From sequence record OQ873415.1: a stretch of 64,000 nt of DNA, one strand, 5' to 3'. A program made the translations under genes and the position numbers. Every line of letters begins with the position of its first letter. Position 1 is the stretch's first letter. Positions 18,545-37,056 of this stretch are shown here, in pieces. The notes beneath the pieces are model-generated. The model ran no database searches. It was not told the origin of the DNA and saw only the letters and a program-made list of their open reading frames with translations. Source of the DNA: Escherichia phage PECP20.

Positions 18545-18680
18545 TTTTACCATACTCGTTTCAATAAGATTCACTATGCCGTTTACCATGTTATAAGTAA
18601 ACATCGGATAATTGTATTGTACTACAACATAAGCGATAAGCAAAAGTTTCATTTTGTTCTCCGTTCGTTTTGGTAGGACT

Positions 18681-18710
18681 ACTATAACATAGTCCTACCA
18701 AGATGTAAAC
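18681..18710 (-). promoter_or_regulatory. T4-type early promoter (GTTTAC ... TATAGT) with perfect 10-bp inverted repeat GGTAGGACTA/TAGTCCTACC around the -10
   Basis: Minus-strand read. Confidence 0.5.
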
Positions 18711-28446: not shown

Positions 28447-28752
28447 TTATTTTCCTCGACATTCTTTAATGAAATTTTCTAGATTGGTAGATTCAATAGC
28501 TTTTTTACGAGCTTCTGCGTGTTCTTCTTCAGACAATTTACATTTATAATTGACCCAGACGTTATGGTCGAAACTAGTCGTGGCATATAATAACAATGCT
28601 CCAACGAATAGCAAAAACGGCGATAAGAATACAAAACCAGGAACACCATCCATACTGTAAGCCTTTTGTAATACTGCAACAGAAAGAGCTGCGTAAAAAA
28701 GTGATACAAATATTGTTAAAAGACCAATTCGGTTGGTTTCGCCTAATTTCAT
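28447..28752 (-). CDS. Membrane protein, C-terminal ...ENFIKECRGK (FIxECR-tail family member 2)
   Basis: Two transmembrane helices plus conserved tail. Confidence 0.5.
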   Translation of the reverse strand: MKLGETNRIGLLTIFVSLFYAALSVAVLQKAYSMDGVPGFVFLSPFLLFVGALLLYATTSFDHNVWVNYKCKLSEEEHAEARKKAIESTNLENFIKECRGK

Positions 28753-28780
28753 AATATTCTCCTCATGTTTTAATAGGACT

Positions 28781-28809
28781 ACTATAACATAGTCCTATCA
28801 GTTTGTACA
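28781..28809 (-). promoter_or_regulatory. T4-type early promoter (TGTACA, 17 nt, TATAGT) with inverted repeat ATAGGACTA/TAGTCCTAT around the -10
   Basis: Minus-strand read. Confidence 0.5.
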
Positions 28810-29091: not shown

Positions 29092-30048
29092 TTATTTGAA
29101 AGGTTTTACCATATGAAAGTTTTGTTTGAAACGCTTGACGTAATCGTCGTGTCCTAAGCTTTGGTACATACTTACTACTTTGTTATAATTTTCCCAAGCG
29201 AACTCACGGAACCATCCTGATGTGATTGATGTACAGACCTTTTCAAGGGCCATCATAAAACTATCACGTGGATGGATTTCAAAGTTATTAGGAATCTGAG
29301 AACGTTCTAACGCTAGTACACATGATTCTTCGTATACGCCGGCCAATTTGACCATTTCTGGTAATGATTCGAACTTCTCGCGTGAGGTCATGACTTCAGA
29401 ACCATCTTTCATATAAAATGTATACGCTGGACGGTCTGTTAGTGCAATGGCTTCATGAATAGTATCATGGTCATATGTATAGATGTCATCTTTAAAGAAC
29501 GCACTTTTAGAAGTGTCAAGAACTGGGTGAGCATAATTCAAGGTTTCTTTCTGGCGTTTCAGCATAATTTCAGTAAGTTCATCGTTCAGTGTAACACCTT
29601 TACCACGAAGATACTGAATATGGTTCATAGTCTTTAAAAAGAATGGATTATTTTTCTTGAAACGATGAGACATCTTAATTGCAAGACATATCTCAGGAGT
29701 TGCCCAGTAAAACCCGTTCAAACGGTCTTTAGTCAAATTTTTCTTGGCGTATTTTAAAAGGTCATAAGAAGACGTGAAATCTTCAGGAGTGAGTTCACCG
29801 ACTAGTTCGCGAACGTTAGTGATAGCCGGAACGATGTATGCTTCAAAATGAGTTTCGCGTCCATTATGGAAGCATTTGAAAACTTGGACATCAGGGTTAT
29901 CTTGGTGAACATATACACCCATCATTTGATTTTTGAATGCATTCCAAGAACCTTGGTCCGCAATAAAGTCCCAATCACTATTTTTAATAGCGCTAGAATC
30001 AATAAGACCGTGATAGTGAAGTGCACGAGAACCAATAACTAACATCAT
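29092..30048 (-). CDS. Hypothetical protein (318 aa); weak nucleotidyltransferase-like N-terminal motif (IGSRALHYHG...SDWDF)
   Basis: GS ... DxD spacing is 17 residues, longer than canonical, so the fold call is tentative. Confidence 0.5.
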   Translation of the reverse strand: MMLVIGSRALHYHGLIDSSAIKNSDWDFIADQGSWNAFKNQMMGVYVHQDNPDVQVFKCFHNGRETHFEAYIVPAITNVRELVGELTPEDFTSSYDLLKYAKKNLTKDRLNGFYWATPEICLAIKMSHRFKKNNPFFLKTMNHIQYLRGKGVTLNDELTEIMLKRQKETLNYAHPVLDTSKSAFFKDDIYTYDHDTIHEAIALTDRPAYTFYMKDGSEVMTSREKFESLPEMVKLAGVYEESCVLALERSQIPNNFEIHPRDSFMMALEKVCTSITSGWFREFAWENYNKVVSMYQSLGHDDYVKRFKQNFHMVKPFK

Positions 30049-30076
30049 AATATTTTCCTCGGATTAATTCATTAAC

Positions 30077-30328
30077 TTAAATTTCACGACATGCGATATT
30101 ATATTCATCCCAGAGGTCATCATGTGAAGCCTCTACCAATGGAACGATTGTACCGTTTATGTCTTCATTATAAGGGCAAATTGTACAGTGCGCATCTTCG
30201 AATCGGATGCCTTTGTGTTCAGATTTTTTATAACGCATATCGAATATCTTTGCAAACTTTTCACGAGTAATGGTTTTACCAACCACTTTGGTTCCGATAC
30301 TTTCGTAATAAATCATTGTGGACTCCAT
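30077..30328 (-). CDS. Hypothetical protein (83 aa)
   Basis: ORF track. Confidence 0.45.
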   Translation of the reverse strand: MESTMIYYESIGTKVVGKTITREKFAKIFDMRYKKSEHKGIRFEDAHCTICPYNEDINGTIVPLVEASHDDLWDEYNIACREI

Positions 30329-30344
30329 TTGTTTTGATAGGACT

Positions 30345-30374
30345 ACTATAACATAGCCCTATCTTGTTGTAAAC
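30345..30374 (-). promoter_or_regulatory. T4-type early promoter (GTTTAC ... TATAGT) with inverted repeat ATAGGGCTA/TAGTCCTAT
   Basis: Minus-strand read. Confidence 0.5.
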
Positions 30375-30378
30375 TGTT

Positions 30379-30576
30379 TTAGCAAGAATAACTAGATGAT
30401 ACCCAGCCTTGAACAGTGATACTATTGTGGGATAATGAGATCGCGTCCTGGAGATTCAGACCTGCGTTATCTTCAATCCATAATGTAACTTCTTCGCGTT
30501 CTTCTGCTGCAATTTGGAACAGGTTTTCCAGAGCAGCTACTGCCGTACGTACAGCACAATCTAATTCACGAGACAT
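30379..30576 (-). CDS. Small acidic protein, C-terminal ...GWVSSSYSC (SSSxxC-tail family member 1)
   Basis: C-terminal motif shared with the two genes upstream. Confidence 0.5.
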   Translation of the reverse strand: MSRELDCAVRTAVAALENLFQIAAEEREEVTLWIEDNAGLNLQDAISLSHNSITVQGWVSSSYSC

Positions 30577-30585
30577 ATTGTTTCC

Positions 30586-30813
30586 TTAGCAAGACATAGA
30601 GGAAGAGAACCAGAAACCTTTGCCTTCCGGAATTCCATAATCGTTACGGATCCAGCCATATTCATCATATTCTGAACTGGTCGCCGGAATATATCGGTTA
30701 AGTCCTTCAGCATACACATGAAAATACTCGCCGGTTTTATCAGCTAATTGTTGGCCTTCACAGATTAGTGCTCGAATTTGGTCTTCAATTTCTTTAACGG
30801 TTTTAGTGGTCAT
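30586..30813 (-). CDS. Small acidic protein, C-terminal ...GFWFSSSMSC (SSSxxC-tail family member 2)
   Basis: Conserved tail; junction TGCTAAGGAAACAATATG. Confidence 0.5.
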   Translation of the reverse strand: MTTKTVKEIEDQIRALICEGQQLADKTGEYFHVYAEGLNRYIPATSSEYDEYGWIRNDYGIPEGKGFWFSSSMSC

Positions 30814-30822
30814 TTTATTTCC

Positions 30823-31116
30823 TTAACATATTTGAGAAGAGGAGATCCATACACCGGAAGTAACGATACCATTTTCGTCAACTTCACCGCCATAGTTTTC
30901 AATTTCATCGCGCATCCAGCGACTACATTCATAACCAACAGGATAGTAAGTACGACCTGAACCATATTCACCTACATCAAATGAAACACCATACTTATCT
31001 GCGATAATAGTAGCTTCATTCTCGATATGGTCTTGAGCACGAAGAAGTTTGCTGATTGCTTCTTCTGCAGATTTAGCGTCATTGTATTCAGGGATTACGA
31101 TTTCAATTTTACTCAT
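30823..31116 (-). CDS. Small acidic protein, C-terminal ...GVWISSSQIC (SSSxxC-tail family member 3)
   Basis: Conserved tail; junction TGTTAAGGAAATAAAATG. Confidence 0.5.
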   Translation of the reverse strand: MSKIEIVIPEYNDAKSAEEAISKLLRAQDHIENEATIIADKYGVSFDVGEYGSGRTYYPVGYECSRWMRDEIENYGGEVDENGIVTSGVWISSSQIC

Positions 31117-31472
31117 TTTCTACATTCCTTAATAAAGTTTTCGATTGTTTCATTTTCACGTTTAGCTAGGAGTTCATTATAACTAATCATTTGAGAAGCG
31201 TAAACCTTTTTATTTTTCTTGTTGTGGTTTATAAAATCGTAGTAAAAATAGACTACAGTACAAAATGATGCGATGGATGCAAAGGCTTGGGTATACCGTA
31301 AGTCCTGCCATTGGTCTGTGAATCCACCAGTGTTCCCTATAAATCCTAACACAACGCCGTCAATAAGAAATCCAACTAATCCAAAGGCAAATCCCATGCC
31401 AATACTCATAATAAAAATTAGAATGTTCTCACCAAGAGAAGGCCATACGGTTAAGAGTTGAGGCTTTTGCAT
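31113..31472 (-). CDS. Membrane protein, C-terminal ...ENFIKECRK (FIxECR-tail family member 3)
   Basis: Transmembrane segments plus conserved tail; stop overlaps the next start. Confidence 0.5.
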   Translation of the reverse strand: MQKPQLLTVWPSLGENILIFIMSIGMGFAFGLVGFLIDGVVLGFIGNTGGFTDQWQDLRYTQAFASIASFCTVVYFYYDFINHNKKNKKVYASQMISYNELLAKRENETIENFIKECRK

Positions 31473-31846
31473 CTTATTTCCTTAACGAATTCCATAGCTT
31501 CTTCATATTCATACTTTTTAACAGCTTCATCATACTGAGCTTGGGCTTTTGCGCACTGAACTTTCCATTCTCTTAATCGGGCTCTGTGATGACGGCCTTG
31601 GTGCCAATATCCTACCCAATTAATAGGCATTAATAAAAACGGTACAATAAGTGGTGCGACGAACATTAATGAAAATGCTGCATCAGACGATATAACTTCA
31701 CTAGAATCTAAAACAGCTCCTATAATCATAAAGATTAAAAATGCTAAAGCTAAAATAGGACCAAATAATACTTCATACGGGATTAATTTACGTTTGTATT
31801 CGTAGGCCCAGGGCTTACTTGGCATGTATAGGGTTGGCTTTGACAT
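31451..31846 (-). CDS. Membrane protein, C-terminal ...EFVKEIRCKSLNS (FIxECR-like tail, family member 4)
   Basis: Transmembrane segments; related tail. Confidence 0.45.
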   Translation of the reverse strand: MSKPTLYMPSKPWAYEYKRKLIPYEVLFGPILALAFLIFMIIGAVLDSSEVISSDAAFSLMFVAPLIVPFLLMPINWVGYWHQGRHHRARLREWKVQCAKAQAQYDEAVKKYEYEEAMEFVKEIRCKSLNS

Positions 31847-32438
31847 ATTCTCTACATTCCATAATAAATTGCTCAAGGATTAAATTGTTAGTGAAATTAG
31901 GACTAACAACCATAGTTTCATAAAGCGCATCAATAGCACTTAAAGCATCAACTCTTTTAAGCAAAGGCTTGCCTTCATACATAGTTTCAGAATCGATGAT
32001 TAACGTAAAGTAATATTTTTTATTATCGACTAGAACTTCTGTATCGATATAAAACATATTAGACCTCAGAAGCTTATCTCTAAAACCATAATAATCTTCA
32101 GAGCGTTCGCTGATATATTCCCATTCAGTGTTTAAACAACAAACAGACCACGTAGGAGCAACGAAATCAGTGAATCTAATATCATGGTCTGCAACTAGTT
32201 TAGCAATAGCTCCGATATCATGAATCATAATACCTGGGGCTAATAAAGATTTTCTGCTATGGCTAGCCGTTTTCTCGGTGGTCTCATAAGAAGACGACCA
32301 GTACCATTTACGTCCGGTTGCAACATATCGTAATGAATCAACTAAAGACGTAGGTGGATTTACCTTATCTCGGAACTCTTCGAACATTGAGTCAATATCA
32401 TTATTTTGGTTTCGCATGTTAGCTCCTTTATTATCCAA
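31815..32438 (-). CDS. Hypothetical protein (207 aa) with internal ...EQFIMECREYVK motif
   Basis: ORF track; start uncertain. Confidence 0.45.
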   Translation of the reverse strand: MDNKGANMRNQNNDIDSMFEEFRDKVNPPTSLVDSLRYVATGRKWYWSSSYETTEKTASHSRKSLLAPGIMIHDIGAIAKLVADHDIRFTDFVAPTWSVCCLNTEWEYISERSEDYYGFRDKLLRSNMFYIDTEVLVDNKKYYFTLIIDSETMYEGKPLLKRVDALSAIDALYETMVVSPNFTNNLILEQFIMECREYVKANPIHAK

Positions 32439-35396: not shown

Positions 35397-35473
35397 TGGT
35401 CGAGACAGAAGGATTCTAACCTTCAACCTACGGATTAGAAGTCCGTTGCTCCATACAATTGAGCTATGCCTCG
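35397..35473 (-). tRNA. tRNA-Arg (anticodon TCT), CCA encoded
   Basis: Hand fold: acceptor CGAGGCA/TGTCTCG, D-arm GCTC...GAGC, anticodon stem ACGGA/TCCGT with loop CTTCTAA, T-stem GAAGG/CCTTC, discriminator A plus CCA. Confidence 0.75.
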
Positions 35474-35479
35474 AATATA

Positions 35480-35553
35480 TGGCCCAGACCAGATTCGAAC
35501 TGGTAACCTTTCCCTTATGAGGGGACTGCTGCTAACCATTGAGCTACAGGGCC
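35480..35553 (-). tRNA. tRNA with anticodon CAT (Met, or Ile if lysidine-modified)
   Basis: Hand fold: acceptor GGCCCTG/CTGGGCC (one U-U mismatch), anticodon loop CTCATAA, T-arm ACCAG-TTCGAAT-CTGGT; no encoded CCA. Confidence 0.7.
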
Positions 35554-37009: not shown

Positions 37010-37026
37010 TTTGTTTTGATAGGACT

Positions 37027-37056
37027 ATTATAACATAGTCCTATCGGCATGTAAAC
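37027..37056 (-). promoter_or_regulatory. T4-type early promoter (-35 TTTACA, 17 nt, -10 TATAAT) with inverted repeat ATAGGACTA/TAGTCCTAT around the -10
   Basis: Minus-strand read. Confidence 0.55.

Follow-up and report, generated by a model that had tools for sequence, protein, structure and literature searches.

The stretch of Escherichia phage PECP20 DNA analysed here (64,000 nucleotides, hereafter the window) comes from a T4-type Mosigvirus of the RB69 group, and over positions 30000-31500 it shares 98.5% identity with Escherichia phage LH01. Downstream of the lysozyme gene e and nudE, and between homologs of e.2 and e.3, lie three consecutive minus-strand ORFs in one common frame, separated by 9-nt spacers (Table 1). 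The original prediction had drawn attention to a common ending of these 65-, 75- and 97-aa products. This ending is real, as W-x-S-S-S-x-x-C stands directly before the stop codon in each. The predicted conservation of a C-terminal cysteine also stands, while its placement two residues from the end was wrong: the cysteine is the last residue.

Table 1. Features of the tail-gene array and its surroundings in the window, in coding-strand order.
Feature	Position	Strand	Description
Promoter-like site TTTACG-17-TATAAT, GCTT at ~-30	31176..31204	-	Inside e.3, 60 nt upstream of ORF3; consensus match only
ORF3	30823..31116	-	97 aa, pI 4.3, 'type A', RB69ORF139c group
ORF3 tail VWISSSQIC	30826-30849 (coding)	-	Protein end ...SGVWISSSQIC*
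Spacer GGAAATAAA	30814..30822	-	9 nt, ORF3/ORF2 junction; preceding TAA plus spacer gives TAAGGA, the ORF2 Shine-Dalgarno
ORF2	30586..30813	-	75 aa, pI 4.6, 'type D' member
ORF2 tail FWFSSSMSC	30589-30612 (coding)	-	Protein end ...KGFWFSSSMSC*
Spacer GGAAACAAT	30577..30585	-	9 nt, ORF2/ORF1 junction; ORF1 Shine-Dalgarno region
ORF1	30379..30576	-	65 aa, pI 4.2, 'type C', RB69ORF136c group
ORF1 tail GWVSSSYSC	30382-30405 (coding)	-	Protein end ...QGWVSSSYSC*
Hairpin and overlapping sigma-70-like promoter TTTACA-17-TATAGT	30328..30373	-	-16 kcal/mol, z -3.97; between array and 83-aa gene
Small intervening gene	30077..30328	-	83-aa ORF (79 aa annotated in relatives), RB69ORF135c group, PHROG 3723
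Nucleotidyltransferase gene (predicted)	29092..30048	-	318 aa, DUF7277+DUF7275, 331 nt downstream of ORF1

The two junctions read TGC TAA GGAAACAAT ATG and TGT TAA GGAAATAAA ATG, and the shared junction DNA that had been pointed out earlier is indeed seen in both, as TGY TAA GGAAAY. A stop-to-ATG distance of 9 nt is the commonest in the family of tail-bearing proteins defined below (31 cases). At the upstream end of the array, the last codons of e.3 (31113-31472), AAG GAA TGT AGA AAA TGA, contain the Shine-Dalgarno sequence and ATG of ORF3. The promoter-like site inside e.3 may drive the tail-gene array; at the equivalent place, the annotation of phage SA79RD has a T4 middle-type promoter.

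Beyond ORF1, a hairpin/promoter element and the 83-aa gene separate the array from the enzyme gene, which appears to have its own promoter. The ~35-nt hairpin element is found in at least four copies in the window, all in the same orientation and at ~94% identity (30328-30363, 28766-28799, 37010-37045 and 18667-18697), and it resembles the promoter-early stem-loop cassettes known from T4-type phages. The 83-aa gene belongs to a group found in Mosigvirus and Dhakavirus. Because Aeromonas and Phapecoctavirus phages have no such gene between array and enzyme, it does not count as a core part of the arrangement.

Other features of the neighbourhood were recorded alongside. A second shared C-terminal motif occurs nearby in proteins that are otherwise different, namely e.3 (...NFIKECRK), the product of 28447-28752 (...NFIKECRGK) and the e.5 homolog (31815-32438; ...FIMECREYVK), and related phages have similar endings (JS98 ...FIKECKS, ...FIAECREYAKE). 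At residues ~43-54 of its 200-aa product, the e.5 homolog also carries an internal near-match to the tail motif, ...GRKWYWSSSYETT, which lacks the cysteine and is probably due to chance.

Conservation of the C-terminal tail

The tail family is defined here as small acidic proteins that end in W-x-[S/A/P/N]-S-[S/N]-x(0-3)-Cys right before the stop codon, a description that covers all three ORFs. When all six frames of the 64-kb window were scanned, 'SSS..C*' turned up at the ends of these three ORFs only. Across 80 related loci, a relaxed version of the pattern closes 195 of 948 same-strand ORFs lying upstream, compared with 2 of 719 downstream ORFs and none of 1227 on the opposite strand, and chance thus does not account for the tail.

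Selection acts on the tail as protein and not as a DNA signal. Within the window, its serines are encoded by TCA-TCT-AGT, TCT-TCC-TCT and TCC-TCT-TCT. Among 126 distinct tail DNAs, which correspond to 79 distinct peptides, each serine position takes all six serine codons, the cysteine is encoded by TGC or TGT, and the stop codon is TAA, TGA or TAG. With codons that vary and homologs that are widespread, the motif is neither confined to this genome nor explained by regulatory DNA.

The tail is also the most conserved part of these proteins, far stricter than the body. For instance, all 27 full-length proteins from a profile search in which the tail was not a selection criterion end in W-x-[S/A]-S-S-x-x-C. 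An S-x-x-Cys-COOH spacing is present in 137 of 176 tails, and in 31 the cysteine comes straight after S-S (span 6). Since the terminal cysteine is the sole cysteine in 66 of the 176 members, it has no conserved internal partner. One 72-77-aa subfamily type carries two copies of the motif, one of them internal (...DWLNSSCYGE...IWYPSSC), and this internal copy shows that the carboxylate need not be free in every case.

Of the roles suggested earlier for the cysteine, lipidation is contradicted by the hydrophilic N-termini (MSRELD, MTTKTV and MSKIEI), which hold no lipobox or signal peptide, and by the position of the cysteine, which is last where a CaaX box needs it four from the end. A protease tag or metal binding would be conceivable, with nothing specific in their favour. 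Two further candidates were considered and rejected: a sorting signal, as the curated C-terminal sorting and RiPP recognition tags of NCBIfam gave no relevant match at E<=1, and a T4 internal protein, as no capsid-targeting sequence is present.

Relationships among the tail proteins

The three genes are real and related, and many T4-like phages have homologs of them. ORF2 and ORF3 share 34% identity over 65 aa (E 3e-4). BLASTP similarity between ORF1 and either of them is confined to the last 8-19 residues, and with the tails removed, hhalign gives the ORF1-type profile a probability of 3.7% against the main-family profile. At the level of sequence, the body of ORF1 is not detectably related to those of ORF2 and ORF3, and the tail is portable, being found on at least two bodies without detectable kinship.

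The recent tandem triplication proposed in the original prediction was not borne out. The paralogs are old and only ~21-34% identical, and each has orthologs in other genera, at 42-99% identity. Searches with tblastn returned 461 phage records for ORF3, 114 for ORF2 and 251 for ORF1. Up to five tail types, in largely conserved order, are carried by Dhakavirus, Gaprivervirus, Marfavirus and Karamvirus-like phages.

A possible trace of exchange between paralog types is seen in the window. A mosaic patch of 286 bp (30594-30879), made up of the body of ORF2 and the final 19 codons of ORF3, stands between flanks that match ordinary Mosigvirus at 98.5% and 92% identity. The patch itself has no match there and most resembles Gaprivervirus and Dhakavirus phages, at 73-87% identity. 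In place of the 90-aa '..GGWVASSHTC' type of ordinary Mosigvirus, it brings in the 75-aa '..GFWFSSSMSC' type. Its left breakpoint (30593/30594) falls at the conserved TGC TAA GGAAAC stop/Shine-Dalgarno junction that ends ORF2, on the coding strand upstream of GGAAACAAT, and this position suggests cassette exchange between paralog types. In RB69, the ortholog of ORF3 (RB69ORF139c, UniProt Q7Y506; also P0008) is only 71 aa long and stops before the tail, and the ORF3-type gene seems dispensable or broken in that laboratory phage.

The family extends over Straboviridae, Phapecoctavirus, Otagovirus and jumbo phages. ORF3 (E 1.4e-22) and ORF2 (E 5.8e-15) match PHROG 899 and ORF1 matches PHROG 4882 (E 1.3e-36), neither of which has an assigned function. 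Scans of the three ORFs against Pfam, NCBIfam and PADLOC gave noise only; the family is without a Pfam entry or a name, and no solved fold matches it. Among 1.84 billion representative proteins, a profile search gave 33 matches, of which 30 sequences were inspected (27 of them full length); most of these 27 also share a G-[DE]-Y-G-x-G-x-T-Y-Y-P hairpin. The long, repeat-rich matches P0024 and P0038 were discarded as low-complexity false positives. Searches of word-indexed proteins and viral contigs with the small proteins themselves reached close relatives only, and the diversity described here was reached via the enzyme and the tail DNA pattern.

Members of the family are small and acidic, with a median pI of 4.4. 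In an AF2 model of ORF3 (pLDDT 86), a long N-terminal helix packs on a small beta-sheet whose last strand is closed by W90-I-S92. For residues 91-97, which make up most of the tail, the mean pLDDT drops to 68, and in this model the tail looks exposed.

Linkage with a predicted nucleotidyltransferase

The original prediction overlooked what proved the most informative feature, a conserved nucleotidyltransferase gene downstream of the array. The product of this gene (29092-30048) has more than 2200 relatives and matches DUF7277 (E 9e-28) and DUF7275 (E 3e-79) in a Pfam scan, in which PF23940 and PF23942 are the only matches at E<=1. Invariant G6-S7, D25-x-D27, E69 and K125 form a Pol-beta nucleotidyltransferase signature with the triad present, and in the highly conserved, helical C-terminal half numerous further His, Asp, Glu and Cys residues are invariant. 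The closest solved structures to its model (pLDDT 91) are MenT1 (10.2), ANT(2'') (8.7), MenT3/TglT (8.7), MenT4 (7.9) and LnuA (7.2). Sequence and profile searches against PDB chains gave no match, and neither did sequence-level comparison with DUF1814 or the PADLOC AbiE models. Taken together, signature and model predict a Pol-beta-type, MenT/AbiEii/ANT-like nucleotidyltransferase. In phages VAC36 and vB_EcoM_005, the DUF7275 enzyme is labelled 'prohead assembly scaffold protein', likely a mis-annotation, as is 'sulfurtransferase' in phage JK36, a label that was set aside because it sits on the e.4 homolog and not on the genes considered here.

In every distant locus that was inspected, tail genes lie just upstream of a homolog of this enzyme of ~300-320 aa (Aeromonas phages 31 and AS-yj, Phapecoctavirus ESCO13 and phiWec186, Pseudomonas PPSC2 and Acinetobacter PhaR5). 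The association was then counted in both directions. IMG/VR loci fetched via the enzyme (40-98% identity, including ~350-kb jumbo-phage contigs) had at least one upstream same-strand tail ORF in 72 of 80 cases, with variant tails in 3 more and an intact enzyme with no tail ORF within 3.5 kb in the remaining 5, and these loci are not independent, many coming from related phages. The reverse test used the tail DNA pattern alone across IMG/VR, where it had to close an acidic ORF of 40-170 aa with enough flanking sequence; about 21 loci, likewise not all independent, held the enzyme and 2 lacked it within 2-4.5 kb. One enzyme gene is accompanied by one to five different tail proteins. Linkage in both directions suggests that the tail family and the enzyme form a two-part module.

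Records of the enzyme and the ORF3 type follow each other closely by host genus (Escherichia 259/252, Aeromonas 59/57, Enterobacter 36/34, Klebsiella 35/34 and Shigella 18/18), again with many related phages among them. The module is essentially confined to phages: 185,579 species genomes yielded 5 MAG contigs, and 72,556 plasmids 3 partial matches.

Enzyme homologs without nearby tail ORFs were found in Streptomyces, Gordonia and Vibrio ValKK3 phages. All three keep G6, S7, D25, D27, K125, H128, H194, D195, H198, E240, E241, E248 and R249 and have replaced R129, K132, R165, H174, P175, C243, C272 and R281. The 80 tail-linked enzymes all have R165, H174, P175, C272 and R281; positions 129 and 132 are Arg or Lys only, and C243 is present in 70. 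This pattern is suggestive of co-adaptation of the enzyme with the tail, and only suggestive, as the three homologs without tail ORFs are also those that have diverged furthest, and distance alone may explain it.

The surroundings of these tail-less relatives were also recorded. All three are shorter (251-263 aa). The one in Streptomyces phage Beuffert (L106) lies ~1 kb from an RNA ligase gene, the one in Gordonia phage Lozinak (L107) near a cluster of tRNA genes, and the one in Vibrio phage ValKK3 (L108) near a gene for peptidyl-tRNA hydrolase. Such neighbours hint, weakly, that the core of the ancestral enzyme may act on RNA or tRNA. In the window, tRNA-Arg(tct) and tRNA-Met(cat) genes (35397-35553, minus strand) stand ~4.3 kb upstream of the array, the usual position of the tRNA cluster in T4-type phages. 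No general tRNA linkage of the module was seen, with tRNA genes near it only in the window (~5 kb away) and in one Gordonia phage.

Possible roles of the module and comparison with known systems

Because the tail is strictly conserved, apparently exposed, present on at least two bodies without detectable kinship and tied to one enzyme, a recognition or modification tag would be expected. Most likely, the tail is a putative handle by which the enzyme recognises the small proteins, either as substrates with a modified serine or as regulators. The best single explanation, held tentatively and with a chance somewhat short of even, is that the tail docks several clients onto the enzyme, which modifies a tail serine. 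The tail would be the common handle, the enzyme would use an NTP to nucleotidylylate or phosphorylate the serine hydroxyl, and one enzyme could in this way mature or switch several different client proteins. We infer here that tail and enzyme touch physically, that serine is the acceptor and that the terminal cysteine has a role of its own.

Pol-beta-fold enzymes that act on small proteins offer precedents, such as the nucleotidylylation of PII by GlnD and the action of MdcG and CitX on acidic carrier proteins. MenT-type active sites can also phosphorylate a protein Ser/Thr hydroxyl (PMC11375011). The nearest solved relatives speak against a protein substrate, as their targets are tRNA 3' ends for MenT1, 3 and 4 and antibiotics for ANT/Lnu enzymes, and in no case a partner protein. 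Other points that count against the docking model are the 5 enzyme loci with no tail ORF and the 2 tail loci with no enzyme, the hairpin/promoter element and 83-aa gene that separate array and enzyme in the window, and the internal motif copies.

The chief alternative, which we judge unlikely, is regulation: the small acidic proteins would be antitoxin-like or pseudo-substrate regulators of a MenT-like toxin that shuts off host translation by modifying tRNA 3' ends, with the tail inserted into the active site or inducing auto-phosphorylation as MenA1 does with MenT1. Small proteins that restrain a tRNA-modifying enzyme in a MenAT-like arrangement provide the model (PMC10435456). However, the enzyme here is accompanied by one to five long-diverged paralogs in conserved order and not by a 1:1 partner, the module is essentially phage-only, and no PADLOC or DUF1814 sequence match was found. 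MenA1, moreover, binds via one extended helix and without such a tail (PMC11375011), and the enzyme gene in the window appears to own a promoter.

It is likewise doubtful that the tail serves a role apart from the enzyme, such as docking to a host protein, bridging of subunits in homo- or hetero-oligomers through a Cys-bound metal, or tagging for stability, with the enzyme linked through a pathway or co-inheritance. Up to five paralogs could hetero-oligomerise, the two cysteines of the subfamily with two W-x-S-S-C motifs per chain could share a ligand, and linkage of genes is no proof of contact. Nevertheless, the linkage holds in Straboviridae, Stephanstirmvirinae, Otagovirus and ~350-kb jumbo phages despite unrelated neighbourhoods, and the tail-less enzyme homologs have lost a specific, otherwise invariant set of residues. 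One cysteine with three serines would also make a poor metal site.

Far less probable is a RiPP-like maturation, in which a tail serine becomes dehydroalanine and the terminal cysteine closes a C-terminal thioether ring with it, or the cysteine is decarboxylated as in AviCys. The prevailing S-x-x-Cys-COOH arrangement (137 of 176 tails) is the epidermin-type spacing of AviCys/lanthionine motifs, and an NTP-using enzyme could activate the serine hydroxyl, but the scanned neighbours in the window include no dehydratase, cyclase, LanD/HFCD or radical-SAM gene, the proteins are folded domains of 65-100 aa (model pLDDT 86) rather than a leader with a short unstructured core, and the 31 tails of span 6 cannot form the same ring. 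That the shared ending is a by-product of regulatory DNA at the junctions (stop plus Shine-Dalgarno) or of recent gene conversion can be dismissed with near certainty: two junctions do have TGY TAA GGAAAY in common and one has a recombination breakpoint, but the codon data, with six serine, two cysteine and three stop codons all in use, refute it, the motif persists at 21-35% overall identity, and no downstream gene start follows the tail of ORF1.

A counter-defence or host-takeover role, as suggested earlier, would be plausible given the phage-only distribution and the variable genome region. We consider it improbable, if worth stating, that the tail is the acceptor for a new kind of protein modification in phages, in which a MenT-like nucleotidyltransferase would add a nucleotide, or build up a short oligonucleotide, at a tail serine beside the terminal cysteine of several small acidic effectors, with the protein-nucleotide conjugates turned against host targets or defence systems.

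Literature searches, which also covered phage MenT-like enzymes and proteins with a C-terminal cysteine, found nothing on these genes, DUF7275/7277, the RB69 ORF names, the tail motif or the module. The module is present in hundreds of sequenced lytic phages, several of them therapy candidates or in model collections, which infect E. coli, Klebsiella, Enterobacter, Aeromonas, Acinetobacter and Pseudomonas, and all its components are annotated 'hypothetical'. A strict tag on up to five proteins per genome, together with one nucleotidyltransferase, provides a testable lead to a new link between an enzyme and its clients, or its regulators, in the conflict of phage and host. With a length of eight residues, the predicted site of modification could be read by mass spectrometry, and the result would give a first functional handle on DUF7275, DUF7277 and two PHROG families.

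Among known systems, lanthipeptide and AviCys precursors have a Ser-rich segment followed by a C-terminal Cys with S-x-x-C spacing, and one enzyme can serve many precursors (prochlorosins). The module resembles them in this C-terminal spacing and in its many small proteins per enzyme. It differs in having no lanthipeptide-type enzymes, in a predicted fold, and in that the conserved part is the C-terminal end and not an N-terminal leader. Another parallel is with GlnD-PII and GlnE-glutamine synthetase, where protein nucleotidylylation is reversible, and MdcG/CitX, which transfer a prosthetic group onto a Ser of small acidic carriers; as proposed for the module, a Pol-beta-fold nucleotidyltransferase acts there on a small-protein hydroxyl, and several paralogs can share one enzyme.

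RlaP (PF10127) nucleotidyltransferases are also phage-borne Pol-beta enzymes of similar size, and the Streptomyces phage homolog of the enzyme lies ~1 kb from an RNA ligase gene. RlaP extends the damaged 3' ends of RNA by adding nucleotides and is without tail-protein partners (PMC12776372). In contrast to this group, the window enzyme has no PF10127 match at E<=1, and close relatives of the window have no RNA ligase annotation within ~4 kb of the module.

The MenAT/AbiE systems (DUF1814; MenT1 with MenA1) provide the best solved matches to the enzyme model (MenT1, MenT3/TglT and MenT4), and in both cases the small-protein gene is upstream on the same strand. The enzyme described here differs in having no DUF1814/AbiE sequence match and in extra invariant residues in its C-terminal half. 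Whereas MenA has no tail and acts as a single cognate antitoxin in bacterial genomes, plasmids and defence islands, the module has 1-5 partners with an invariant C-terminal tail and a phage-only distribution. In summary, the enzyme superfamily and systems that pair a nucleotidyltransferase with a small partner are already known; what is new is the tail family and its many-to-one coupling to the enzyme.
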